The notes below the pieces were generated by a model that was not told the DNA's origin, did not search any database, and was given only the letters and a program-made list of their open reading frames with translations. This document shows, piece by piece, positions 38,100 through 53,284 of a stretch of 64,000 bases of DNA. The DNA comes from a virus: IMG/VR virus record IMGVR_UViG_3300035189_000033, positions 1 through 64,000 of that record. One strand, 5' to 3'. The translations under genes and the position numbers were made by a program. Each line of letters begins with the position of its first letter. Position 1 is the first letter of the stretch.

Positions 38100-40235
38100 A
38101 TGGGCCTCGATCCGACCCTCGTGCACGGGTTCCAGCCGACGCAGAATGTCGGGCCGAACCTCGGCGGCATGCTGCAAGACGCGAACTCGATGCTGCAAAT
38201 CGGCGAGCAGAAGCGGGTGTTGCAGCAGCAGAACGCGCTGCGCGGCATCCTGGGGACGCCGGACGCGCTCGATGCGCAGGGCAATCCGACCGACGCCACG
38301 CTGAAGCGGGTTTCGGGCGTGGACCCCGCGATGGGCATGCAGTTGCGCCAGAACATGCTGGTCTCGCAGCAGCGGCAGCTTCAGACCGAGTCGATGCAGA
38401 GCAAGGCCATGCAGGACAAGATGGAGCTGCTGGCCAAGACGTATGAGCCGATTTGGGACGACTACAATGACGCGATCAAGCATGGCGCCACGCCCGAGGA
38501 GGCGAAGCGGGCGGCGCAGGAGGGGGTGACCGAGGGCAACAAATTTCTGACGCAGCACGGGCTTCTGGCGCCGCATGAGGTCGCCAACCTGCCGACTCAA
38601 TTTGACCCCATCCAGTTCGGGCATTTCATCAAAGGATCGCAGACTTACCGCGAGGATATGACGGCGCGGGCGGCTGCGGAGCAGAAGGCGAGAACCGAGC
38701 AACAGCGCGAGCGGCAGCTCGATATTGAGCAGCAGCGGGCGGATCAGGAAAAAAGCAAAGAACAGCCCACAATGGGGCCTGATCCAAATGACCCGAGCAA
38801 GCTGGTGCCGGGTGTCGTGCGGAGCAACGCCGGCAGCAACGACCCGCCGGTCTTCATTCCTTATCCGACCGGCGTGCAGGCGCCGGCCGGCAAAACCGCC
38901 CCAGCAGGATCAGTTGCGGCGGAGCGGTCAACACGGTTCGAGGAAGAAAAGCGCAACCAGCAGGCCGCCGGGACCTATAAGAACGACAGCGGGGTCTACG
39001 ACGTCGTCGATGCGAAGCTGAAGACGATCAAGGATAACCACTTCCCGCCCGGCACCGCGAAAGTTCTCGTCCAGCGCGCGCTTGCCGGCGATTTTTCAGG
39101 CATGACCGGCTTTAGCCGCTCGCCCGGGCTTTTGGTGGAACTCGACACCGAGCTTGCCAAGCAGATGGCGGAGCACGATCCGCCGCTGACCGGCTTGGAT
39201 CTGGCGCGAATGAGGGCCGGATTTGCCGCCTACACGCAGGGCGTCAAAGCGTTCGAGGCGGGCGGCAAGCTGGAACAGCCGGTGCGCAGCCTGTCGGTCG
39301 CGGTGGATCACCTGGACCTGCTGAAACATGCGGCGACGGCGGTTTCCCAGCATGACAGCGCGACGCTCAACAGACTCCAGAACGCGCTGAAGACAGAGTT
39401 TGGTTACACCGGGCCACCGACGTTGGACGCGATCAGGGGCACGGTTGCGGCCGAAATCGAGAAGGCCGTATCGGGCAGCGCTGGTGCTGTGTCAGACCGC
39501 GAAGACCTGAAGGCCAACCTCAACAAATCGCTGCCCCCTGCCGCGCTGATGAGTGTGATCGACGGCTACGAGGGGCTGATGAGCGGCCAGCTTGGCGGCT
39601 TCCGGAAGACCTATCAACGGCTGCAAGGGATCGAGCAAGGCAGCGGTGAGGATTTTGACAAGAAATTCCTCAGTGACCGGGCGACCGCGGTCCTGACCAG
39701 ACGCGGACAGATGGGCGCCGCGGGCGGCACGAATGAGAAGCCCCCCGCTGCGACCGCGCCGGCGGCAAAGGCAGATCAAGCCGCGATTGCCGTTCCGACA
39801 ACGCCGGCCGAACTTGCCGCACTGCCGCCAGGGACCAAATACCGCAGACCGACCGATGCGCCTGGCGTGGTTCGGCATGCGGCGGCGGCGACTGCGACGC
39901 CGGAGGCGGCCAAGCCAGCCGCCGCGGCGCCCGCAGCAGCAGCGGCACCCGCAGCAGCGACGCCGGCAGCCGCGCCCCCGCCCGGAGCCTACACGGTGCC
40001 GAAATCTCGCGCGGACGATCCGGACGGCACCACTTACAACAACGGCAAGCTGGTCAAACAGGGTGGCTTCATCGTGCCGGTGAAACCGGCCGAGGCCGCA
40101 CGCAAGGATGCAACGCCGCCTGCGGGCGGTCGACCGCTGCCGAAGTCGCGGGCCAGCGATCCCGACGGCACGACCTATAACGACGGAAAGTGGGTCAAGC
40201 GGGGCGATTTTGTCGTTCCTGTAGGAGCACAATAA
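38100..40235 (+). CDS. DNA ejection protein (gp20 position)
   Basis: Helical, Gln/Ala-rich; follows the pilot gene; two C-terminal repeats. Confidence 0.7.
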   Translation: MGLDPTLVHGFQPTQNVGPNLGGMLQDANSMLQIGEQKRVLQQQNALRGILGTPDALDAQGNPTDATLKRVSGVDPAMGMQLRQNMLVSQQRQLQTESMQSKAMQDKMELLAKTYEPIWDDYNDAIKHGATPEEAKRAAQEGVTEGNKFLTQHGLLAPHEVANLPTQFDPIQFGHFIKGSQTYREDMTARAAAEQKARTEQQRERQLDIEQQRADQEKSKEQPTMGPDPNDPSKLVPGVVRSNAGSNDPPVFIPYPTGVQAPAGKTAPAGSVAAERSTRFEEEKRNQQAAGTYKNDSGVYDVVDAKLKTIKDNHFPPGTAKVLVQRALAGDFSGMTGFSRSPGLLVELDTELAKQMAEHDPPLTGLDLARMRAGFAAYTQGVKAFEAGGKLEQPVRSLSVAVDHLDLLKHAATAVSQHDSATLNRLQNALKTEFGYTGPPTLDAIRGTVAAEIEKAVSGSAGAVSDREDLKANLNKSLPPAALMSVIDGYEGLMSGQLGGFRKTYQRLQGIEQGSGEDFDKKFLSDRATAVLTRRGQMGAAGGTNEKPPAATAPAAKADQAAIAVPTTPAELAALPPGTKYRRPTDAPGVVRHAAAATATPEAAKPAAAAPAAAAAPAAATPAAAPPPGAYTVPKSRADDPDGTTYNNGKLVKQGGFIVPVKPAEAARKDATPPAGGRPLPKSRASDPDGTTYNDGKWVKRGDFVVPVGAQ

Positions 40236-43200
40236 TGCCACTCGACGGTGCTGATGACGGCGCATGGCTGGTGCCGGATAAGCCGGTTGGCAAAGCACCG
40301 CGAGCGCCGGACTTCGACCTGATCCCCGACCCGCCGGCGAAACAGGCGGCAGCGGATGATTCGGGGGATTGGCTCGTGCCGGATCGGCCGCGAGCGGCCG
40401 TCGCGCAACCGGCGGCGCAGCCAGCCGCACTCGCACCGGCACAGCCCGCAGCGCGCCCTGCATCAGCACAGACAGCCCCGGTTCAGCAGATGCCGCCGCT
40501 CGATGAGTTGGGTATCGGCCAACTCGGACCGCAAACCGGCGCACCGCCAGGGCAGAAACCGGTCGAGGTGGGACAACCGGGCGTCAATATGCTCGCCGCG
40601 ATCGCGCAGGGCGCCAAAGCGGGCTGGCAGGGCGGCGCGTTCCAGGAACAGCCGGGCCTGGTTGACGCTGAACTTCAAACCCTGAAAACGCCGGTCTATG
40701 GCTCCGGTCCGACGGCTATGCCGGGCTTCGCTGCTGTCCCCGCCGTGACTGGCCTAGCCGGGCACGTCATCAACCAAGCGCTCGGCGCACTCGGCGGTGG
40801 CTTCACGTCTGGCGTCGTGCAAGCTGGCGAAGAAGTCGGGCCGAAACTGGGCGGACCGCAACTCGCACGAGACTATCTCGGCTACCTACAGGCAATCGGC
40901 AATGAGATCGGCATGGGGGGCGTGTTCGCGCCCAAAACGATAGCCGAAGCGGAATCAGGTGCGAACACGCGGATCTTCCGGGGTGGAAGCCCCGGGCCAG
41001 GCGATTCGCCTGGGCGGGTGCTCAATTGGGATGTGATCGAACAACGGCCGCCGGCGCCGCCAGCGCGTTCTGTGCCCGGCGTCAAACGGAGCGAAGTAGA
41101 CATTCAGCTTGAGTCTGATGCGTTCCTGATCGCCCATCCTGAAACCGCGGCGATCTACGACAAATACCATGGCGAAGGTGCCGCACAGAAGGTGCTCGAC
41201 GCCGCTGCCAAGAAGCCCGAGGGCGGCAAGCCGCAGGCGACGACGCCGACTGCCGCGAGCGCGGCCCCCGCGAAACCAGCCGAAGAACCGCCGAAACCCT
41301 CTGCGTCCGACGATACGGTTAAAACAGCCACCAAACCCACCGGTCCAACGGCGCCCAAAATCCGCACGATCTCGCAAATCCAGAAGGAAGACGGCGTCGG
41401 CTACAACGAGGCGGCGCGCCGCCGGGATGCTGAAAAGCTGGTGGCACAGCTGGTCTCGTCCGCCGCCGCGCCGACCGCAGCAGATGCAGGCACCCCTGCG
41501 CCGGATGGTGCGCCTGCCGCTGGCGACACCGGAACTGTGACCACTAGCGAAACACGACCCACCAAACTTAAACCGGGGCAACGATTTCACGAGTACCCGG
41601 ACTCCGCGCTTGTGGCTGATGGGCTGCGTGAAGGCGACGAGATAACCACCAGCGCAGGAGATAAATTCACCGTACTTGGGGTCTTCGCCCATAACAGGAA
41701 TCGGCCTGACTTGGGCAACAGGATCGACATCCGCTGGGATAATGGAAAAGAAGTCTCCTTCAAACCACGCGACCTCGAATCCGTCCTCGTGCCGCACTAT
41801 TATTACGACGCCAACACTGGCGAGCGAAAGCTGGGCGAGGGAGCGACGATCCAGCGGGCCAAGGCTGCGGCCGAAGACGCGGCTACTGGCGGCAAGGGCA
41901 CGTCCGATGAACCGCCTGTGGCGACGGCCGCCGATTCCGCCACCACGGCACCGGCCCCGGCAGATGCAGGCACCGCACCGCCCGCTCCTAGACCCGTCAG
42001 CCAGATCCAGGCCGAGGACGGCGTTCCGCTCGGGACGGCGGTGCAAACCCATGAGGCGGAGAAGCTGGCAGCCGAACAGGCGCTCACCACAACCGAACAG
42101 CCCAAAGCCGATGAGCCCGACCTCGAAAACGCCCATGAGGGACCATGGGAAGCCGCCGGCACCAACGCCGAGGGCGAGACGGTCTACCGCAACCCCAAGG
42201 GCCGGCTGGCGACATTCGATGCCGGCGTGCCGTGGCTGGGTGCGGCGGACGGCTCGGACGACGACAACAAGCGGCTGAAGGTGGTCAAGCCCGTTGAGGC
42301 GGCGGCGGCACCAGAACCCCGCCCGGTCGAGCAGATCCAGGCCGAGGACGGTGTTGGCCTCGGTGCTGCGGTGCAGACGCACGAGGAGGAGAAGGAAGCG
42401 GCGAAGAAGGCTGAACAGGAGGCGGCAGGCGAAACCGAAAAGCCCGAGAAGAAGCCCGCGGCGAAGAAAGCCAAGCCCGCCGCGGCCGAACCGGAGGATG
42501 AGGCGCCCGCCGAACCGGCCGCCGAACCATCCGGCGATCAAAAGACTCCGGGAAAATCCGGGATTAAAGCGAACGAGAAACCGCAACAAACGCAGCCCGC
42601 CCAGTCGCCCTCGGGCTCCTTAGTGATGGCGCCGATCGGGGACGACTATTTCCCGCCCGTCCAGTCGGGGCAGAAGTTGCGCACACAATCGGGCCGCGAC
42701 ATCACGGTCCCGACGTTCAGCAGCGGGTCAAACCGGGCGGACAATCTCGCCCGCCGCAAGCTCAACGCCTGGCTGGCGGACGAGACGCGCAAGGAAGTCG
42801 CCGCGAGCGGGGCTGACAGCTATCTGGCCGGCATTGTGGCCGGAATGAACCCCAAGAACATGTCGCAAACCGACCGCGACACCGCGAGCGATATCCTGTT
42901 CGGGGCGGATGGTCCGAAAGCCGCTCCCAAGGCGGAACCGGCCAAGAAACCGGCGGCTGCACCCGAAGCCGCAGCGCCGGCGACGCCGGTCACGAAACCC
43001 TTCACGTCGCAAGACATCGGAACGAAGGTGCGGCCGAAGCCGGGCAGTGGCCTCGATCCGGTCAAGAACGCGGGCATTATCTCGCACGTCCAGACATCGC
43101 CGCAGGGGCCGAAAATTTCGGTCAACGGCGGCCCGCACTTCCTGGGATCGGACTTCGAGCGCGTGCCGGAAGCGATCCCTGTGACACCCGAGGCGCTGCA

Positions 43201-46200
43201 CGACCGTATCATCGCCCAGCTTCAGGCCGACACCAGGCTGCAAGCGGTTTTGTCGAACGCCGAGGAAAGCCCCGATGGCGCGCGCGAGACGGTTCGCAAG
43301 GCATACCGCGCCGCGCTGGGCCAGATGCTGGCCGACGCGGATATGCCAGACCTGCACGCTATCGCTGCCGCGTCGGATGCGTTGCGCGACAGGCCGATCG
43401 GCATGGATGACGTGCGCGAGATCACGGCGGCCCGCCCGGGAGCCGCACCCGAACCGGCTGCAGAAGCCACCGGCACGCCGACCACCGACGCGAAACCCGC
43501 CGCACCCGCGCCAGCCGCAACGCGCACGATCACACCCGAAGAGCCAACTTACGATCCCAAAGACGAAGATCAGCGGAACGCCCCGGTTGGGGAGTTTGGC
43601 TGGAGAGACCTCGGGGGAGGATACGATTATCGCTTTGGCGAAACGGGTGATGATCGTGTCCGGCGCCGATTTATCCAGGTCAGAATTCTCGACAACTACA
43701 ACGACCCAACCGATTGGTTCACTTGGAACACGGTTCGCGCGGAATCGCTCGACATGACACTTCAGGCGCCCCTGGTGCACAGCTACGTGCGCAAGGGTCG
43801 GGACGGCGAGATGGAGCCGGATGAGGTCTGGCCGGAGCACGGCCCGGAGATCGAGCACCGTTTACGCGAAGCGGCGAAGCAACAAGGTGACCAGCAAGGT
43901 CTACCCGCACCTGATTTGCAAACGCCGGGCGGAAGCGCCATATCGGAAACTCAGGAGTCCGCAGATGGCGATCGACCCGACAGTGCTGAAGTGGGTGAAC
44001 CGACAGGTGGCGGACCTCGCGCATCGGGGGCTGGTGCCCGGAAGCCCAAGGGAAACCGACCTGCTGCAACACTGGCTCCAGAATCGGCCGAAGATGATGC
44101 ACCGGCTGGACTCAGCGGGGATGGCGGAGAAGCTGGCGTTCGTCCTGGATCAGAAGCGGTGGGAGGCGCGCCAGCAGTACATAGCGGCGGGGATGCCGCC
44201 ACCGGACGCGGAGGAACAGGCGATGAGGGAGTGGTGCCTGATGGAGCCGGAGGACGAACCCCAAACCCAGCCGTTACCCGCCCCAATTTCCACATTGACG
44301 ACCCAAAGCGAATAATCGGCGGCACTGGACCTAAGCAGCGTTTCGCCCGCAACCGGGCCGCTTTAAAGGCGCTTGAAGACATCCAGGCAGAAGGCCGCGA
44401 TCCGACCCAGGAAGAATTGGAGACCATGGCCGGGTTCATCGGCTGGGGCTCGTTTGGCCAGGAGGTCTTCCAGGGCAGTTTCGAACGGCAACCCTACCGC
44501 GATGGATGGGAAGAAGAAGGCCGTTGGCTGCGCGAGCACCTGGGCAAAGAGGCGTGGGACAGTGCCCGCGACTCCATCCGCAACGCCCATTACACCGACC
44601 CGCCCACCGTCGCCGCGATGTGGGACATGGTTCGCCACATGGGTTTCTGGGGCGGGCGGGTGCTCGAACCGTCCATGGGCGTCGGCAACTTCTTCGGCCT
44701 GATGCCGCGCGACCTGATGGGTCAAAGCGATCTGACCGGCATCGAGAAGGAAAAAACCACCGGCGAAATGGCTAAGCTGCTGTATCCGCACGCCGGTATC
44801 CACGTGCGGGGCTACGAGGAAAGCAAAACCGCAGATAATTTCTACGATCTGGTTATCGGGAACTGGCCGTTCGCTGCGCAAAGCCCGCCCGACCGACGCT
44901 ATGACAGGCTCTCGCCAAGCCTGCACAATTACTTCTTCCTCAAGGCGCTGGATCAGGTCCGCCCCGGCGGGCTCGTGGTCGGCATCACCAGCAACGGGAC
45001 GATGGACAGCGCCGGCCGCGCCGCCCGGCTGGAAATGGCGAAGAAGGGCAAGCTGATTGCCGCGTTCCGCCTGCCGTCTGGCGCGTTCAAGGATTACGCC
45101 GGGACTAGCGTCGTCGCCGACATCATCATCCTGCAGAAGCGGGCGCAACCGCTGGCGAATGCCGTCGATGAGCCATGGATCGATGCCACGGAGATGAGCA
45201 CCGGGCACGGCGACATCCGGGTGAACCGGTATTTCCAGGATCACCCCGAAAACGTGCTGGGCACCCTCGATTGGGGCCACGGCACCACCTCGGGGCGCCC
45301 GGGGATGATCGTGCATCGTCCGGACGACCTGGAGCAACGGCTGCAAGCTCTGGCGGCAACGCTGCCAACAGACGCCTATCAGCCAGTGATCCGGGGCAAG
45401 GAACCGCGCTTTCTGGTCAACAACACGACCGACCGGCACGGCAGCATCGTCATTGGCGACGACGGCCATCTCTACCAAGTCCAGGGTGAGCGGCTGACCC
45501 GGCTTGACGACCTGAAAAGCGGGATGACAACAGGGCCGGCCAAGGTGGTGAAGGCGCGCGAAGATCAGGTTCGCCGCATGGTCGCGATGCGCAAGGCGTA
45601 TGGCGCGCTGATCGACGCCGAGCGGGACGGCAAGCCGGAAGCCGACACGCTGCGCAAGTCGCTGAAGGCGCAGTACGACCAGTTCCGCGCCGAGCACGGC
45701 CCGATCGGTAAATCCGATGGCTTGCGTGTGCTTGACCGGATGAAAGACCCTGGCCGTTCGGCGGTTGAATCGCTGGAACGGCCGGACGGGACGCCTTCAC
45801 CCATTCTGACCGAGCCGACGGTGCGTTCGAGGCGGAGCCTGGAAAACCCCTCGATCGCCGACGCATTTGTCCTGGCGCGAAACGAGCAGGCAAATTTCGA
45901 CCTCGACCGCGTCGCCGAACTGACCGCCAAGCCGCGCGCCGCGGTTGAGGATGTGTTGCTCGACCAGGGCGCCATCATGCGAACGCCGGGCGGCGGTTTT
46001 GAGGCGACCGACGATTATTTGTCAGGCAACGTCCGGCGCAAACTGCGTGAGGCCAAGGAAGCCCTGGCCGCTGGCGATGAGAAAATGCAGCCGTCGATCG
46101 ATGCGCTGACCAAAGTTCTGCCGCCAGATACGCCGTATTACAACATCGAGGCGAAGCTGGGCGCCACCTGGGTCGGCGATGACGCCTACCGGTCGTTTAT

Positions 46201-49200
46201 CGGCGACCTGTTGAACCTGACACCCGATCAGCGCGCGGGCGTCGATGTCCGCTTCACCGGGAGCCGCTGGCGGGTGCGGTTCGGTGACCGTGCCATCAAC
46301 GGCAAGGCCGAGGCCAGGACTGTCCACGGGCACGAAGATTACCCGTTCAACCAGTTGATCATGGCGGCGATGGGCAACCGCTCCGTCAAAATCACGTACC
46401 GGGACGATGACAACGTCAAGCACACCGACGACAAGGCGACCGAAGAGGTCAACGCCAAAGTCCAGGATCTGAAAGAGAAGTTCACCGACTGGGCGTGGTC
46501 GGACCCGGAACGCAAGGTGGCGTTCGAACAAGCCTTCAACGAGACGATGAACGCCATCGCCAAGCCGCGCTTTGACGGCTCGTTCATGGATATGTCGGGG
46601 ATGGCGCTGCGCCGCGGCAATGACCCGTTTTCCATGCGGCGGCATCAGCTTAACGCCATCTGGCGCGGCGTGGCGCTTGGGCGCGGACTGTTCGCCCATG
46701 AGGTCGGCACCGGCAAGAGCTACACCATGGCCGGGATCGCTGTTGAAGGCCGCCGCTATGGCAAATTTCGCAAGCCCGTGGTGTTCGCGCACGGCGCCAA
46801 CAGCGCCGCCGTCGCCCAAGAGTTCCAGGACATGTATCCGGGCGGCAAGTTCTTCTACATCAGCACGCTAAAGCCCGACCAGATCGCCACCAGCCTGCGC
46901 CGCATCGCCAACGAGGACTGGGATGCGGTGATCATGCCGCACAGCCTGATCGACCGCATGGCGCTGACCAAGCCGACCCTGGTGGCATTGGCGGCGGAGC
47001 AAATTGCCGAACTGGAAAACGCGGCGATCGAGGCGGCGGCGGAAGATGACATTACGCTTACGCCCGAAGAAATTTACAGCCTGATCGAAGAGTCCAAAAC
47101 GGACAAAAAGGCGATGGGCCGTCTGCGCAGCCCGACCGCGAAGGATGTTGTCCGGCAAATCCAGTCGCTTCTGAACAACATCGAGAAGCAGGCCAGCCGT
47201 GCCTCGAAAGAGGACGCCGTGCCGTTCGAGCAACTGGGCATCGACGCAATTCTTGTCGACGAAGCGCACGAGTTTAAAAAGCCGCCGTTCGCCACGGCGA
47301 TGAAGATGCGCGGGCTGAACACCCAGTCCAGCGACCGCTCCATCGCGCTGGACTTCCTGACCAAATACGTCAAGGCCAACAATGCCGGGAAGGGCGTGTT
47401 CCTGTTCACCGGGACGCCGGTGACCAACACGTTGAACGAAATCTTCAACATGGCTCGCTACTTCATGGATGACCGGATGGCAGATGCCGGCATCAAGGAG
47501 TGGGACGCATGGTTTAACACTTTCGCCGACGCGACCAACGACATCGAACTGACCAGCACCGGCGAGATTGAGCCGGTGAAACGGCTGGCCGCGTTCAACA
47601 ACGTCGATGAACTGGTGCGCCAGATGTCGGAGTTTGTTGACGTCGTCCAGGCCAAGGACATGCCCGAGTTCAAGCCGCGACCGACGCCGTCGGGCAAGAC
47701 CCTGACATCGCCCGACCTCACCGCGGAAGAGCTTGATTTCCTGATGAACGGCCGGACCCTCAAGCCCGAGGGCCGCCCCTACGTCAAGGTGATGACCGAC
47801 GTCGGCGAGATGTCGCCCGCCCAGGTGGACATCCTCGACGAACTGCGTGAACTGGCCCGAGAGTTCAAGACTGCTGACGGGAAGCAGAAAAAGGAGTGGA
47901 TGCAGGAGGGTGACGAGCGGGTGCCGATCCGCATCGAAACCAACTCCGCCAACACTGGTATCGACCCGAGGCTGTACAACCCGGACGCGCCGGACACCGA
48001 AGACAGCAAGATCAACCGCATTGTGCGCAACGTGCTGCGCCACTATGGCGAGCCGGACGCCGCGCAGGCGATCTTCCTCGATCGCGGCTTCAATCCTGTG
48101 AAGTCGTCCGAGGGGCGGGCGAGCCGTTTCGTGGTGGTCGATGAACTGATCGCCAAGCTGGTCGAGGGGGGCATCCCGCGCGAGCAAATCGCCGTCGTCG
48201 CAGGCGGGATGAAAGCGGAGAAGAAGAAAGAGATCGCCGACGGCATGAACTCGGGCAAGTACCGGATTGCCATCGGCCAAAGCGGCACGTTGGGCGTTGG
48301 CGTGAACATGCAGGAACGGCTGCGCGCCATCCACCACTTTGATGCGCCCTGGCGTCCGGGCGATCTGGAGCAGCGCAACGGCCGCATGAACCGCCAGGGC
48401 AACACCTGGAACATGGCCTACGAATACCGCTACGTGACCGAAGGCATCGACGGCCGCCGCTGGCAGGTTCTTCAGGTTAAAGACAAGTTCATCAAGGCGT
48501 TCATCGCCGCGTTCAACGACACCAGCGGCAAGCGCATCGGCAATATTGAGGGCGATGCGGCGGATATGTCGGAAGATGAGGACTTCTCGAAGACCTTGTC
48601 GGCCGCTGCCGGCGATCCGAGGATTATGATCAGGGCCAAATACAAGGCCGATGTGGAGCGTTTGCAGCGCCGCGAGCGGTTGCACACCAGGGGTCAGGCC
48701 GAGGCGATACAGCTTGCCCGCAGTCGGCGGCCGATCGCCCAGCGTTTGCAAGAGCAGGCCGCAGCGCAAGGCCGTTACGCCGATCGCTGGGAAGCATCGG
48801 TTGCCCGTGCGGCGAAGGCTGCGGAGGCCGATGGAGACGACCGCAAGTGGTATGAGATTGACGGCGACAAAGCCCAGGCGGCGGCCAAAATCGCTAACCT
48901 GGAAACATCGCTCGCGGGTTGGGACGATCAAATCGCCAAGGCGCGGAAGGCGCTGCAAGAGGCGAAGACGGCAAACAATCGGTTCGAACATATCGAACGG
49001 CGCCTTGACCGGCTGATTGGCGCCAAAAACCGGGCGCAGGCCGCTGTTGAGACCGTCAGGTCCACCGGGCGCTGGTTTGATACCGGCGCCGATCTTCAGG
49101 ATACGCTTGACAAGGCGATCACTGAGGTCGCCAGGGGCGAGAAGCGGAAACTCGCGACCGTGGGCGGTTTTGATATCGTCGGTAACTGGAGCAGCCCGTT

Positions 49201-52200
49201 CAACTTCTTCGAGGCGCCGCGCATTGAGATCTACGACCCCGCAAGCGGGGAAGTGGTAGACTGGGTAACCGGATTGACGGTGCTGCGCATCGCCAATGAA
49301 CTGAACCAGCGGCGCCAAAAACAACAATCCTGGGCGACTGACGCCGCCGAGAAAATGGCGTCGATCCCCGCGCTGGAAGCCGCTGGCAAGCAGGATTTCC
49401 CGCAGCAGGAAAAGCTGACCAAGTTGCGCCAGCAGCTTGCCAAGCTGGAAGACGACCTACAGGCCAATCCAAACCCGCCGCCGTCCTGGCTGCGCAACGG
49501 CGCGCCGATCGACACCGATATCTACGTGGATGGAGAGCCCCGCACGGTGCGTGGGCATCGGGTGGTGGACGACTATTTCCTGGTCACCGACGAGGGCGAA
49601 GTGCCCTACCTGGCGGCGATGGACGCCAACGGGCTGCGGATGTTCACGGTTCACGAGCCGCCGCAGGTCGTGTCGCGGGAAACGCCAGACTGGGTGAAGC
49701 CGCATCTCGAAGCGACCAAGGGCGTCTCCGAGGGTGACCCGCATGTCTGGCACGGCGAACTGGTCTGGCACAACCGCGACCTGGCGCTGATAAGGGGCAC
49801 CACGAACCTGTGGGGGCCGGACGAAACGGCGTTCCTGGGGTTCAAGAAGGGCGTTCCTGCCGAGCCGGGCCGCAACCTCATCGGCATGATGTCGCCGAAG
49901 GGTTTCAAGCCGCAGGAGTGGGAGCGGCTGGGTGAAGCGCGCGACGACTACGTTGCCCGCGAGGCGAACAAGGCGGCGCTGGCGGCCGCGGCACAGCCGA
50001 CGCCCGCGAGCGGGTTCCAGCCGACGCCGGGCCTGGACTGGACGGTGGATGAGACTGAGCGTTGGGTGCGCGGGCTGCCGCGGGGCGGGCTGGCCGAGGG
50101 ATCTGGGGGCATCTCCGTGCCGCTCTACAGCGCGGTGCAGCGGGCGGCCGACGCGCTGAAGCAGGCCAAGGGCACCGGCCAGCAGATGCTGGCGCAGATC
50201 GTCAAGACGCCCGGGGTGAAGCCGGAAGAGATCGAGTGGATGGGGCTCGATGATTGGCTGAAGTCGCAGCCCAGCGTGACCAAGCAGCAGATCCAGGATT
50301 TCGTCGCGGCGAACCGGCTGGAGGTGCGGGAAGTCACCAAAGGCGACTATCGGGCCCGGCTTGAACCGGCGCACACAGCGGTCAGTGAAGCTGCCGACCG
50401 GCGACAGATCGCGGCCGAACGGCTGGAGCGCGGCGTGGATCAGAACGGCTACACGGTCGAGATCGACGGCGAGCGCTTGTATCATGACGAGATCATGCGC
50501 GGGCTTGCTGATGGCGCAATCAAGCCGGGCGATTTGCCCGTGGCGCACGGGTTACGTTCCCGTGCCGCGCTTTTTGTCGAGGCTGTCGCCGACGAAGCGC
50601 AGGCCGAGGCCAAGCTGAAGCAGGCGCAAGAGCGGGTCAGAGCCAACCCAGACCCAACCAAGTTCGGAGGCTGGCTGGCGCCGTTCCAGCCCACGGACCA
50701 ATACCGCGAGATCGTATTCACTTTGCCGGCGCCAGAACCGTCGCCTGCTGGCGACATTGAGAGGCTACAGAACGGTAAGTTTCGGGTTACTTACGGCGGA
50801 TCGGGTGACGTGTTTGCTACGCGGGCTGAAGCCGAAGCGGAAACCCGGCGACTGGGCGAAATCTTCAACAAAACAAATGATTCACGGGTTTTTCGTGGTG
50901 GGCATTGGAGCGAACGGAACGTCGTGGCGCATGTCCGCTTCGATGTAGTCGAGGCGCCGGACGGCGCGCGCGTGCTGATGGTCCACGAGGTGCAAAGCGA
51001 TTGGCATCAGGCGGGTCGAAAGAAAGGCTACCAGACTGGCGAAAAGCCCAAGGGCGCGGGCAATTTCATGGACTGGACCGCGCGCCAGGGGATCAGCGCG
51101 GACGACGCGGGCCGGATCTGGGAATACCGAGAAAAGGGCGACCCCAACACGCCTGACAACGTGATCTACGCGCGCTGGCGGCAAGAGAGCGACGCGGCGA
51201 TCGCCGCCATCGATCGCTGGAACCATGCGGTGCCGGATGCGCCATACAAGACCACGTGGCCTACGCTGGTGATGCGGCGGACGATCAAATACGCCGTGGA
51301 CAACGGCTTCGACCGGATCGCGTGGTCGCCGGGTGCGGTGCATGCGGATCGCTACGACCTGTCCAAGCAGATCAGCCGCGTCGAATATGACCAAAGCCCC
51401 AACAACCCCGAGGGGGGCTCATTCAAGGCGTTCGATAAGAGCGGCAGAGCGGTTATCAACCGCTACGCCAAGACGGCCGAACTGCCAGACATGATCGGCA
51501 AGGCGGCGGCTGACAAACTGCTGGCGCAAAAGCCCGAAGGCGACGGCATCACACGGGGCAACAGTCTGAAGCGAACGCTTCGCGGCCTCGATCTGAAAGT
51601 CGGCGGCGAGGGGATGACCGGCTTCTACGACGACATTCTGCCCAAGACGGTGCAGAAGATCGTCGGCAAATACGGCGCCAGGGTGGGCAAGAGCGAGATA
51701 CCGACGGGCGGCGGCAATGCTGCGGCGCGTGCCGAGTATGCCCAGGAGATTGAGGACATCGAGGCCGCTATCGTCCACAACGAAGCGGCCGGCGCCGAAG
51801 AGCACTACCTCGACCAACTGCGGGACCAGTTGGCAGAGGTTGAAGCCCAGATGATGCAGGACACAATGGATCGTTCCGCGCAGCCCGGCGCGTCCGCCGT
51901 CCACTCCTTCGACATCACGCCGGCGCTGCGTGACGCGGTGCGGACTGAGGGGATGGCGCTGTTCGAGCGCAAGCCGGGTGGTGCGGATAGGCCAGCCAGC
52001 CCGGCGCCGGCGACGAAACCAACCTGGGCGACGCCGCTGGCCAGCGATATCAACGGCACTGTGGCATGGCAGAGCAAGGGGCTGGCGCTAATCCAAGGGC
52101 ACTCGATCAGCGGCAAACGCATCTACGTGCCGGCCAAGGAAGGCATCGGCCGCGCCAGCGTGGATCTCGACAGCTACACCGGGAAGCACTTCACGCCGGA

Positions 52201-53284
52201 CGAACTTGCCCGCCTGAAAGCGGCGCGTGACAAGGTCGCCGCCGCCGAAGCAAGGCAATTGGCGAAACGCCAGTCAGCCAGCAACCGCGTTTCGCCATGG
52301 CCCGACGGTGGCGCCAACTTCACCGATCTGCTGCATGAAGCGCCCGAGCAGGGCCACGGCGAAGCCGGTGACTGGACCCGCCAGAAGGGCATCGACACCA
52401 ACCACGAGCACATCGCGGTGGTGGATAATGCGACTGGGCGGATTGTGCATGCCGGGACGAACAATCAGCGCCGTGAGGTGGATTTTCCGCACGCCAATGT
52501 CGCCGGCACCACCGACACCGTCACCCTGCATCACAACCATCCGAACAGCACGGGACAGTCGCGGGAAGATACCGTGTTCATGGCAAACCCCGGCGTGAGC
52601 CACATGGTTGTGCATGGGCACGACGGATCAACATCGATCACGACGCTGGGGCCGAATGCCGGGTTTGTGCGGTCCGCTGATGATATCGCCGCGAACGGCA
52701 AGACCCTGGGTGCGGCGTATGACCGGGCTGACGCGACATCCCACCAAGTGCTGCGCGAGCGGGTTATCGCGGGCGACGTCAGCGAAGATGTGGCCGGACA
52801 GTTCCGCGCGGAAGTTGCCAACCGCTTGCTGAACGCAGAGGGTATAATCAGCTACGTGTCTACCCGAGAACTGGTGCCCGCGATCAAACTGGCTGTGGGC
52901 AAGAAACTAAGGAGTCTAGGCTACGATGAGCGGCAGATTGATCGATCCACCGGACGAGTTCGCCCCGAAGAGCGAGTTGCAAGCCTTCCTCGACCAGTAC
53001 AAGGCGGACCCGGACCCGAACGTGAAGCGGATGGTGCAGCAGGTAACGGGGTACTTGCAGGACAAGGACAAACCGATGTCGCAGCGCCGCCAGATCAGCC
53101 CAGCAGACCAGATGCAGCCCCGCAAGAGGCGGTAGGCGGCGACAAAAGCGGTATCCGCAACGCGCTGCGCTGGATCACCGGCCGTGCGCCGAAGCGTGGC
53201 GGGCTTGCCGAGACGCCGAACGCCCTGGCCGCTATAGCCGCACGCCCGGCGCGTCCCTCGAACAATGCCCTCGCGAGGCTGTGA
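40235..53284 (+). CDS. Giant (~4,350 aa) DarB-like polyvalent virion protein: adenine MTase, SNF2-type helicase and C-terminal effector domains
   Basis: NAHYT, VLEPSMGVGNF, IGNWPF (MTase); HEVGTGKS, VDEAHEFK, TGTPVTN, PWRPGDLEQRNGR (helicase); EVQSDWHQ domain; HNHP..S..D JAB-like domain; AGGAG SD. Confidence 0.9.
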   Translation: MPLDGADDGAWLVPDKPVGKAPRAPDFDLIPDPPAKQAAADDSGDWLVPDRPRAAVAQPAAQPAALAPAQPAARPASAQTAPVQQMPPLDELGIGQLGPQTGAPPGQKPVEVGQPGVNMLAAIAQGAKAGWQGGAFQEQPGLVDAELQTLKTPVYGSGPTAMPGFAAVPAVTGLAGHVINQALGALGGGFTSGVVQAGEEVGPKLGGPQLARDYLGYLQAIGNEIGMGGVFAPKTIAEAESGANTRIFRGGSPGPGDSPGRVLNWDVIEQRPPAPPARSVPGVKRSEVDIQLESDAFLIAHPETAAIYDKYHGEGAAQKVLDAAAKKPEGGKPQATTPTAASAAPAKPAEEPPKPSASDDTVKTATKPTGPTAPKIRTISQIQKEDGVGYNEAARRRDAEKLVAQLVSSAAAPTAADAGTPAPDGAPAAGDTGTVTTSETRPTKLKPGQRFHEYPDSALVADGLREGDEITTSAGDKFTVLGVFAHNRNRPDLGNRIDIRWDNGKEVSFKPRDLESVLVPHYYYDANTGERKLGEGATIQRAKAAAEDAATGGKGTSDEPPVATAADSATTAPAPADAGTAPPAPRPVSQIQAEDGVPLGTAVQTHEAEKLAAEQALTTTEQPKADEPDLENAHEGPWEAAGTNAEGETVYRNPKGRLATFDAGVPWLGAADGSDDDNKRLKVVKPVEAAAAPEPRPVEQIQAEDGVGLGAAVQTHEEEKEAAKKAEQEAAGETEKPEKKPAAKKAKPAAAEPEDEAPAEPAAEPSGDQKTPGKSGIKANEKPQQTQPAQSPSGSLVMAPIGDDYFPPVQSGQKLRTQSGRDITVPTFSSGSNRADNLARRKLNAWLADETRKEVAASGADSYLAGIVAGMNPKNMSQTDRDTASDILFGADGPKAAPKAEPAKKPAAAPEAAAPATPVTKPFTSQDIGTKVRPKPGSGLDPVKNAGIISHVQTSPQGPKISVNGGPHFLGSDFERVPEAIPVTPEALHDRIIAQLQADTRLQAVLSNAEESPDGARETVRKAYRAALGQMLADADMPDLHAIAAASDALRDRPIGMDDVREITAARPGAAPEPAAEATGTPTTDAKPAAPAPAATRTITPEEPTYDPKDEDQRNAPVGEFGWRDLGGGYDYRFGETGDDRVRRRFIQVRILDNYNDPTDWFTWNTVRAESLDMTLQAPLVHSYVRKGRDGEMEPDEVWPEHGPEIEHRLREAAKQQGDQQGLPAPDLQTPGGSAISETQESADGDRPDSAEVGEPTGGGPRASGAGARKPKGNRPAATLAPESAEDDAPAGLSGDGGEAGVRPGSEAVGGAPAVHSGGDAATGRGGTGDEGVVPDGAGGRTPNPAVTRPNFHIDDPKRIIGGTGPKQRFARNRAALKALEDIQAEGRDPTQEELETMAGFIGWGSFGQEVFQGSFERQPYRDGWEEEGRWLREHLGKEAWDSARDSIRNAHYTDPPTVAAMWDMVRHMGFWGGRVLEPSMGVGNFFGLMPRDLMGQSDLTGIEKEKTTGEMAKLLYPHAGIHVRGYEESKTADNFYDLVIGNWPFAAQSPPDRRYDRLSPSLHNYFFLKALDQVRPGGLVVGITSNGTMDSAGRAARLEMAKKGKLIAAFRLPSGAFKDYAGTSVVADIIILQKRAQPLANAVDEPWIDATEMSTGHGDIRVNRYFQDHPENVLGTLDWGHGTTSGRPGMIVHRPDDLEQRLQALAATLPTDAYQPVIRGKEPRFLVNNTTDRHGSIVIGDDGHLYQVQGERLTRLDDLKSGMTTGPAKVVKAREDQVRRMVAMRKAYGALIDAERDGKPEADTLRKSLKAQYDQFRAEHGPIGKSDGLRVLDRMKDPGRSAVESLERPDGTPSPILTEPTVRSRRSLENPSIADAFVLARNEQANFDLDRVAELTAKPRAAVEDVLLDQGAIMRTPGGGFEATDDYLSGNVRRKLREAKEALAAGDEKMQPSIDALTKVLPPDTPYYNIEAKLGATWVGDDAYRSFIGDLLNLTPDQRAGVDVRFTGSRWRVRFGDRAINGKAEARTVHGHEDYPFNQLIMAAMGNRSVKITYRDDDNVKHTDDKATEEVNAKVQDLKEKFTDWAWSDPERKVAFEQAFNETMNAIAKPRFDGSFMDMSGMALRRGNDPFSMRRHQLNAIWRGVALGRGLFAHEVGTGKSYTMAGIAVEGRRYGKFRKPVVFAHGANSAAVAQEFQDMYPGGKFFYISTLKPDQIATSLRRIANEDWDAVIMPHSLIDRMALTKPTLVALAAEQIAELENAAIEAAAEDDITLTPEEIYSLIEESKTDKKAMGRLRSPTAKDVVRQIQSLLNNIEKQASRASKEDAVPFEQLGIDAILVDEAHEFKKPPFATAMKMRGLNTQSSDRSIALDFLTKYVKANNAGKGVFLFTGTPVTNTLNEIFNMARYFMDDRMADAGIKEWDAWFNTFADATNDIELTSTGEIEPVKRLAAFNNVDELVRQMSEFVDVVQAKDMPEFKPRPTPSGKTLTSPDLTAEELDFLMNGRTLKPEGRPYVKVMTDVGEMSPAQVDILDELRELAREFKTADGKQKKEWMQEGDERVPIRIETNSANTGIDPRLYNPDAPDTEDSKINRIVRNVLRHYGEPDAAQAIFLDRGFNPVKSSEGRASRFVVVDELIAKLVEGGIPREQIAVVAGGMKAEKKKEIADGMNSGKYRIAIGQSGTLGVGVNMQERLRAIHHFDAPWRPGDLEQRNGRMNRQGNTWNMAYEYRYVTEGIDGRRWQVLQVKDKFIKAFIAAFNDTSGKRIGNIEGDAADMSEDEDFSKTLSAAAGDPRIMIRAKYKADVERLQRRERLHTRGQAEAIQLARSRRPIAQRLQEQAAAQGRYADRWEASVARAAKAAEADGDDRKWYEIDGDKAQAAAKIANLETSLAGWDDQIAKARKALQEAKTANNRFEHIERRLDRLIGAKNRAQAAVETVRSTGRWFDTGADLQDTLDKAITEVARGEKRKLATVGGFDIVGNWSSPFNFFEAPRIEIYDPASGEVVDWVTGLTVLRIANELNQRRQKQQSWATDAAEKMASIPALEAAGKQDFPQQEKLTKLRQQLAKLEDDLQANPNPPPSWLRNGAPIDTDIYVDGEPRTVRGHRVVDDYFLVTDEGEVPYLAAMDANGLRMFTVHEPPQVVSRETPDWVKPHLEATKGVSEGDPHVWHGELVWHNRDLALIRGTTNLWGPDETAFLGFKKGVPAEPGRNLIGMMSPKGFKPQEWERLGEARDDYVAREANKAALAAAAQPTPASGFQPTPGLDWTVDETERWVRGLPRGGLAEGSGGISVPLYSAVQRAADALKQAKGTGQQMLAQIVKTPGVKPEEIEWMGLDDWLKSQPSVTKQQIQDFVAANRLEVREVTKGDYRARLEPAHTAVSEAADRRQIAAERLERGVDQNGYTVEIDGERLYHDEIMRGLADGAIKPGDLPVAHGLRSRAALFVEAVADEAQAEAKLKQAQERVRANPDPTKFGGWLAPFQPTDQYREIVFTLPAPEPSPAGDIERLQNGKFRVTYGGSGDVFATRAEAEAETRRLGEIFNKTNDSRVFRGGHWSERNVVAHVRFDVVEAPDGARVLMVHEVQSDWHQAGRKKGYQTGEKPKGAGNFMDWTARQGISADDAGRIWEYREKGDPNTPDNVIYARWRQESDAAIAAIDRWNHAVPDAPYKTTWPTLVMRRTIKYAVDNGFDRIAWSPGAVHADRYDLSKQISRVEYDQSPNNPEGGSFKAFDKSGRAVINRYAKTAELPDMIGKAAADKLLAQKPEGDGITRGNSLKRTLRGLDLKVGGEGMTGFYDDILPKTVQKIVGKYGARVGKSEIPTGGGNAAARAEYAQEIEDIEAAIVHNEAAGAEEHYLDQLRDQLAEVEAQMMQDTMDRSAQPGASAVHSFDITPALRDAVRTEGMALFERKPGGADRPASPAPATKPTWATPLASDINGTVAWQSKGLALIQGHSISGKRIYVPAKEGIGRASVDLDSYTGKHFTPDELARLKAARDKVAAAEARQLAKRQSASNRVSPWPDGGANFTDLLHEAPEQGHGEAGDWTRQKGIDTNHEHIAVVDNATGRIVHAGTNNQRREVDFPHANVAGTTDTVTLHHNHPNSTGQSREDTVFMANPGVSHMVVHGHDGSTSITTLGPNAGFVRSADDIAANGKTLGAAYDRADATSHQVLRERVIAGDVSEDVAGQFRAEVANRLLNAEGIISYVSTRELVPAIKLAVGKKLRSLGYDERQIDRSTGRVRPEERVASLPRPVQGGPGPEREADGAAGNGVLAGQGQTDVAAPPDQPSRPDAAPQEAVGGDKSGIRNALRWITGRAPKRGGLAETPNALAAIAARPARPSNNALARL
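43916..43944 (+). promoter_or_regulatory. internal sigma70-like promoter for nested ORF 1
   Basis: TTGCAA-N17-CATATC, then AGGAG (43953) and ATG (43965). Confidence 0.55.
43965..44315 (+). CDS. Nested +1-frame gene 1 (116 aa, TnpV/DUF1896-like helical protein)
   Basis: AGGAG SD; mostly G/C-ending codons; globular-looking sequence while the host frame is low complexity. Confidence 0.75.
   Translation: MAIDPTVLKWVNRQVADLAHRGLVPGSPRETDLLQHWLQNRPKMMHRLDSAGMAEKLAFVLDQKRWEARQQYIAAGMPPPDAEEQAMREWCLMEPEDEPQTQPLPAPISTLTTQSE
52926..53135 (+). CDS. Nested +1-frame gene 2 (69 aa, candidate immunity protein)
   Basis: TAAGGAG SD at 52908; TATAAT at 52843; G/C-ending codons; LIDPPDEFAPKSELQAFL. Confidence 0.7.
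   Translation: MSGRLIDPPDEFAPKSELQAFLDQYKADPDPNVKRMVQQVTGYLQDKDKPMSQRRQISPADQMQPRKRR

Follow-up and report, generated by a model that had tools for sequence, protein, structure and literature searches.

Comparative evidence for a conserved small gene nested in the +1 frame of a DarB-like giant virion protein gene in phages

Results

The window analysed in this work is a stretch of 64,000 nucleotides (nt), positions 1 to 64,000 of the IMG/VR virus record IMGVR_UViG_3300035189_000033, an 86.5-kb phage genome rated complete, and our subject is a small gene that seems to lie inside a much larger one. The larger gene (hereafter the giant gene), on the + strand at 40190..53284 with 4,364 codons from GTG 40190 and its earliest ATG at 40235, encodes a DarB-like polyvalent virion protein, and matches phrog_10089 (‘DarB-like antirestriction’, E=0), phrog_11801 and phrog_62 in PHROG, and Helicase_C, ResIII and Eco57I in Pfam. 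The dyad of methyltransferase and SNF2-type helicase, recognized through both Pfam and PHROG, occupies 44297..48760 (+ strand) and begins directly 3′ of the stop codon of the small gene. An EcoKI/TaqI-type adenine methyltransferase and a superfamily 2 (SF2)/SNF2 helicase united in a very large protein are the marks of a DarB-like polyvalent antirestriction protein, an architecture of the kind described in PMC5512222. Association of the giant protein with the virion is known only from the relative JC1, where 51 unique peptides were detected (PMC9144972).

The small gene lies on the same strand at 43965..44315, in the +1 frame of the giant gene, starting at ATG 43965 and running through 116 codons to a TAA at 44313-44315, and its product would be of about 13 kDa. 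A Shine-Dalgarno sequence, AGGAG, is located at 43953..43957 (+ strand), 7 nt upstream of the ATG, preceded by the promoter-like TTGCAA-17-CATATC at 43916..43944 (+ strand; TTGCAA at 43916-43921, CATATC at 43939-43944), which is a weak candidate. An earlier note on this DNA had named all of these elements, from promoter to stop, and each of them is present as it described. The giant gene reads the same DNA (43964..44296, + strand) as a spacer rich in Gly, Ala, Asp, Arg and Pro, at residues ~1259-1369 of its product. Between 43940 and 44239, GC content at the first, second and third codon positions of the giant frame is 0.83/0.69/0.43, which becomes 0.69/0.43/0.83 when read in the nested frame; the latter is the pattern of the giant gene elsewhere (~0.62/0.45/0.80). 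In this codon-position profile the coding signature switches frame exactly at the nested open reading frame (ORF), in agreement with the claim that codons of the nested frame end in G or C whilst those of the giant frame here turn to A or T endings.

Relatives were collected with a bait made of residues 1-300 of the methylase region, which yielded 80 IMG/VR loci sharing 52-96% identity. In 75 of them a nested-protein profile finds a match upstream of the methylase, and a broader profile adds another four, bringing the count up to 79/80, the remaining locus having upstream DNA too short to test. All of these matches are in the +1 frame, and they end at a median of 44 nt (range -19 to 344) before the methylase alignment. 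Start signals and stop codons were counted in the 67 to 71 loci that are unique. The nested start, at or within a few codons of the first profile position, is ATG in 67/71 and GTG in the other four, and a GGAG, GAGG or AGGA core is found at -18..-4 in 49/71, compared to 14% of random windows. A tblastn search with the 116-aa product detects a homologue, again in +1, inside the 4,899-codon giant gene of Pseudomonas phage vB_PaeM_USP_25, where the match ends just 5′ of the HIxxP..GG motif that opens the methylase region; the same kind of search found no match in plasmids. Ten close homologues are short gene calls on fragmentary metagenome contigs, and their DNA has the same layout. Among 1.8 billion proteins there are 504 profile matches at E<=1e-3, those listed being 78-275 aa long, whilst a locus scan with the nested profile returned one locus in viral contigs, four in metagenome contigs and none in genome contigs. 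One metagenome protein (P0009) agrees with the nested frame over 74 residues before passing into the giant frame (..PNFHIDGPER..), which indicates a contig-level indel in that assembly.

Selection was estimated separately for each frame by an OLGenie-type partition of substitutions, giving the ratio of non-synonymous to synonymous substitution rates (dN/dS) by divergence band of the compared pairs. In the nested region, dN/dS is 0.33 for the +1 frame and 1.05 for the giant frame in the closest pairs, 0.39 and 1.07 in intermediate pairs, and 0.56 and 1.18 when all pairs are taken, with bootstrap intervals of the +1 frame below 0.7. The adjacent methylase region, which served as control, shows the reverse (0.81-0.87 for the +1 frame and 0.13-0.15 for the giant frame). 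The nested frame is the better conserved of the two in 94% of pairs. In composition, the giant's reading of this region across loci is 22% Gly, 81% G/A/D/E/R/P/S/T and 9% hydrophobic, whereas the nested protein is 29% hydrophobic, close to the 32% of the globular methylase. Per-frame GC at third codon positions (GC3) and dN/dS, which the earlier note had proposed as tests, show ordinary coding composition and purifying selection in the nested frame.

The lack of constraint on the giant frame, together with giant-frame stops that in three loci (L013, L029 and L005) lie 5′ of the nested gene at a distance of 500-1,900 nt, would also suit an arrangement of three separate genes, the small one standing between a gene for the N-terminal part and another for the methylase-helicase, with the giant frame just happening to be open across it. 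However, the 67 unique loci contain no stop in that frame over the nested gene, against 242 expected from synonymous-codon resampling of the nested protein, whilst the third frame contains 458 in the same loci. Of the 54 loci listed, 52 also have the giant frame open throughout the 3 kb upstream, and in the window the nested stop is not followed by any conserved start codon at which a separate methylase gene could begin, so that we consider three separate genes very improbable. The low dN/dS in the +1 frame, and a giant frame that is unconstrained but free of stops, instead indicate that selection acts on the protein sequence of the nested reading, whereas the giant's reading is only kept open, as a flexible spacer would be. 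The earlier idea that the giant protein reads through the small gene as a linker is strongly supported, its frame being unconstrained there and nevertheless open.

A second sub-type of the nested protein (PEp14-type), which starts with MNLNNW...HWKEhxP, takes the same slot in a number of cultured phages: Erwinia phages PEp14, Pavtok and Stean, Klebsiella phages SopranoGao, LASTA and SJM3, Pseudomonas phage Itty13, Agrobacterium phage Atu_ph08, Ochrobactrum phage POI1126, Vibrio phage VvAW1 and Microcystis phage Mwe-JY07. In all six cases compared with the annotated giant coding sequence (CDS), namely PEp14, SopranoGao, Atu_ph08, POI1126, VvAW1 and Mwe-JY07, the small ORF is in +1. The annotated CDS over the nested region of Itty13 (NC_070969 5006..8467) lies on the opposite strand; the frame one base back from its nested ORF is open across the whole stretch retrieved, and the giant gene of this phage is probably mis-annotated. 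By profile-to-profile alignment the PEp14-type is homologous to the type found in the window (hhalign probability 95.7%, E 9e-9). A third sub-type (Bcep22-type) is represented in Bcep22 and Ralstonia phage Eline by a 107-codon +1 ORF with a composition flip just before the methylase, and is conserved in phage records from Burkholderia (10) and Ralstonia (31). Neither the window-type nor the PEp14-type profile detects it and hhalign gives only 16.6%, its likeness to the other two types being one of position, frame, size and motif alone. The small gene is annotated in none of the cultured phage records compared, just as the earlier note had expected of standard annotation, and we found no publication describing it; the survey of polyvalent proteins (PMC5512222) and the JC1 paper (PMC9144972) do not mention it.

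With a GC content of 61-69%, the window contains many long spurious ORFs in other frames, and one could ask whether the nested ORF is another of these, or else the product of paired, compensating assembly frameshifts. However, independent assemblies, as well as cultured phages covering a GC3 of 0.45 to 0.95, have kept it in the same frame, it is bounded by stops and opens with a conserved ATG and Shine-Dalgarno sequence, its frame is under purifying selection, and identical DNA was recovered in several independent peat metagenomes. Chance or artefact, to which we give next to no probability, is in fact already refuted by these comparative data. As to the source phage itself, it is found again in many peat metagenomes: DNA near-identical to 43400-44900 occurs in metagenomes of peat, permafrost and lakes that come from many separate studies (runs X1-X16), and at least 12 of them contain half or more of the words sampled from that segment. 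The source phage is therefore widespread in peat-type habitats.

The evidence on how the small gene might be transcribed is of a different kind. A consensus promoter scan of the window did not report TTGCAA-17-CATATC. A similar motif is seen in the same place in four relatives (L007, L005, L011 and L004), and promoter-like scores 5′ of the nested ATG exceed those from the rest of the same loci (Mann-Whitney p 5e-8), the windows 5′ of this ATG being also slightly AT-richer. The promoter proposed in the earlier note is thus present in sequence but weak, and these two observations are hints in its favour. A sole metatranscriptome contig covers part of 43400-44900, at 43951..44122 (strand unread; 172 nt, 100% identical, run X17); like all the metatranscriptome and DNA runs used here it is an assembled contig, which shows no start, strand or level and may include carried-over DNA. 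These runs contain no variants within the nested ORF. An internal promoter is in any case not required for expression of the nested gene, because translation can start from its Shine-Dalgarno sequence and ATG within the mRNA of the giant gene.

An AlphaFold2 model of the nested protein, built on 65 sequences, has five helices (predicted local distance difference test score, pLDDT, 77; predicted template modelling score, pTM, 0.58) followed by a tail of low confidence, which is acidic in the window's sequence. The window-type protein found nothing in PHROG, a PDB search with the sequence profile of the nested family returned nothing below E 0.17 and no solved relative, and a wide VIA-align structure search reached a best Z of 5.5, not above the background of helical proteins. 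That best neighbour, 2apl_A (PG0816), aligned over 61 residues and within the range expected by chance for helical matches, is a protein which we take to belong to DUF1896. The DUF1896 family (PF08989) is not supported as an identity, since no member of the nested family matches it at E<=1.

A likeness to TnpV, on the other hand, is seen, although indirectly. TnpV (PF14198) is the top and the only recurrent Pfam match in 20 of 22 PEp14-type members, with a best E of 1.2e-4, and it is also the top match of the Bcep22-type, weakly and below threshold. Scores of the PEp14-type members shown singly are ~15-21 bits, short of the Pfam gathering cut-off of 27 bits and thus of membership at that threshold, and the whole phage record has no TnpV match at E<=10. 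Because this likeness reaches the window-type family through the homologous PEp14-type sub-family, the nested protein can reasonably be called remotely TnpV-like, and not a demonstrated TnpV member. Of the TnpV/DUF1896 resemblance suggested earlier, then, the first half survives in this remote, sub-threshold form, and the second does not. TnpV is a small protein of mobilisable transposons of the Tn4451/Tn4453 type, whose function is unproven although an Xis-like role has been postulated (PMC3158075). The two are of similar size and helical, and share the motif W/L-K-x-x-x-P-x-x-y-x-x-L-x-x-x-G-x-L followed by a second helix, whereas their contexts differ, being a serine-recombinase transposon for TnpV and a virion protein gene for the nested protein.

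The earlier note had also made its case depend on the ORF being conserved and having stand-alone homologues; besides the conservation in 79/80 loci and in cultured phages, a stand-alone homologue is present as a 222-228-aa gene in three Psychrobacter genomes. The nested-type domain is the C-terminal half of this gene, following in frame a domain that in the USP_25 and PEp14 giants is in the giant's own frame. In Psychrobacter sp. R86515 (L087 7980-8666; also L088 and L089) the 228-aa gene fuses positions 1265-1363 of phrog_10089 to the nested-type domain, and is flanked on one side by an MmeI-like type IIL restriction-modification gene and on the other by a Zorya type I system, whose genes are ZorA-D-like (MotB_plug/OmpA, EH_Signature, SNF2). 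A phage-type domain thus sits in a bacterial defence island.

Such an in-frame fusion could be taken as a trace of programmed +1 ribosomal frameshifting, by which the giant's N-terminal part would end in the TnpV-like domain as a truncated isoform devoid of methylase-helicase, the domain never being made alone. Besides the Psychrobacter protein, whose N-terminal half corresponds to a domain that the USP_25 and PEp14 giants encode without any change of frame, this finds support in Sinorhizobium phage PBC5, where the 2,185-aa product of the upstream gene continues in the same frame through the nested domain as far as the nested stop. The PBC5 record (L090/L105; AF448724 / NC_003324, from 2002) has the giant gene annotated as two genes. 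Yet the open stretch of the methylase frame in PBC5 begins 270 nt 5′ of the nested ATG, and Atu_ph08, a close relative of PBC5, encodes a nearly identical nested protein in the usual +1 arrangement, so that a single indel or sequencing error is the simplest, and probably the right, explanation for PBC5. Furthermore, a +1-frame stop lies within 5 codons 5′ of the conserved ATG in 14/70 loci and within 10 codons in 26/70, leaving no space for a conserved shift site. These close stops, together with the conserved ATG and the enriched Shine-Dalgarno sequence, argue for an independent start of the nested reading rather than a programmed frameshift, which we regard as having very little chance of being correct.

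A frame flip of the same sort occurs at the C-terminal end of the giant gene (52790-53284), where GC at the three positions of the giant frame is ~0.8/0.6/0.5. A 69-codon ORF lies there in +1 (52926..53135, + strand), over a low-complexity stretch of the giant frame; tblastn of this ORF against the phage collection gave no match.

Discussion

The results of this work suggest that 43965..44315 is, very probably, a genuine protein-coding gene in the +1 frame of the giant gene, placed directly 5′ of its methyltransferase-helicase module, and that the dual coding of this DNA is almost certainly real. The combination found here, i.e., conservation of the alternative frame across diverged relatives, purifying selection acting on it, a host frame kept open and start signals of its own, is that of a same-strand overlapping gene, and comparison of the loci indicates that selection maintains both readings in well over a hundred related phages. 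The same 350 nt would accordingly be read twice: in the giant frame as a Gly/Ala/Asp/Arg/Pro spacer, free to drift as long as no stop appears, and in the +1 frame as a conserved small protein beginning at a conserved ATG after a Shine-Dalgarno sequence. The small protein would be made by independent internal initiation, either on the late mRNA of the giant gene or on a short transcript from the weak internal promoter. Of the two readings the small gene would be the older one, as its TnpV-like character and stand-alone relative suggest, and the giant's linker would have been overprinted on it.

Same-strand nesting has a well-known precedent in phages, where Rz1 (the o-spanin) lies inside Rz (the i-spanin) in lambda and in Bcep22-like phages, and this embedded class has been described for JC1 (PMC9144972). 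As in our case, Rz1 is a complete gene, on the same strand and in +1, which has start signals of its own and is wholly enclosed in a larger phage gene, and both spanin products are made. The nested gene differs from it in that its host is a 13-kb polyvalent virion protein gene, of which the overlapped part is an unconstrained spacer, in that the embedded gene looks like the older reading, and in that the two products are not known partners. Classical overprinted genes, such as B, K and E of phiX174 and comS inside srfAB, likewise yield two proteins from one DNA in different frames, one of the readings being compositionally odd and disordered. In those, however, it is usually the small gene that is the newcomer, whilst here the newcomer appears to be the reading of the large gene, which would form a linker fusing the flanking modules.

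What the small protein does can be approached by analogy. In phage P1, the Dar accessory proteins Hdf, DarA, DdrA, DdrB and Ulx are needed to load DarB into capsids. They are small proteins co-expressed with a DarB-type methylase-helicase and necessary for its incorporation, and as such may serve as a model for the function of the nested protein; they differ in being encoded by separate genes, not embedded ones, and the comparison is one of role and not of sequence similarity, the function being inferred here. The P1 accessory proteins are mentioned in PMC9144972. By this analogy the small protein might, tentatively, be an accessory factor of the methylase-helicase or of the whole giant, either as an assembly or packaging chaperone or as a regulator of activity in the producing cell. 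A step further, and less likely still, a TnpV-like partner gene could have been swallowed when the flanking virion-protein genes fused by out-of-frame read-through, the one DNA then encoding both the tether of a 480-kDa injected enzyme and its obligatory helper. An ancestral operon of partner and DarB, the direction of the overprinting and the role of inhibitor or chaperone are all things that we infer.

Several observations weigh against part or the whole of this interpretation. The case for the nested gene is built on sequence comparison. With regard to function, neither the window ORF nor the 65 members of its family match anything in Pfam, and Foldseek found no match of the nested model in PDB or BFVD at E<=1e-3. 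The promoter-like sequence agrees with the sigma-70 consensus at 7/12 positions, which is a weak match, and the metatranscriptome contig, the sole RNA support, is a weak hint of transcription that cannot define a 5′ end. The Psychrobacter domain is fused to another polyvalent-protein domain instead of adjoining a DarB-like methylase-helicase, and the upstream part of the giant in PBC5 is in frame with the nested domain, which could mean that the domain is sometimes made as a C-terminal extension. Finally, the operon with TnpV upstream of DarB, which the earlier note had mentioned, was not seen where a DarB-like gene is separate: on four plasmids, sampled without system out of 1,334, the small genes upstream of it are not TnpV-like.

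If the small gene is what it appears to be, a conserved gene is absent from the GenBank records of well-studied phages that are candidates for therapy, and has for that reason not been sought in proteomic or knock-out work. This affects Bcep22-like Burkholderia phages as well as Ralstonia, Klebsiella, Erwinia, Pseudomonas, Agrobacterium and Vibrio phages, and any mutation, deletion or truncation in this part of their DarB-like gene would affect two proteins simultaneously. It would also constitute a statistically strong natural case of dual coding in which the unconstrained reading belongs to the large gene, and suggests that giant polyvalent proteins may arise when separate modules are joined by a linker overprinted on the gene between them. 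Were the swallowing of a partner gene true, a helper (e.g., a chaperone, or a brake on the methylase-helicase during assembly) would never be separable from its client by recombination, and this could be a general route by which the polyvalent proteins of phages and plasmids are built.

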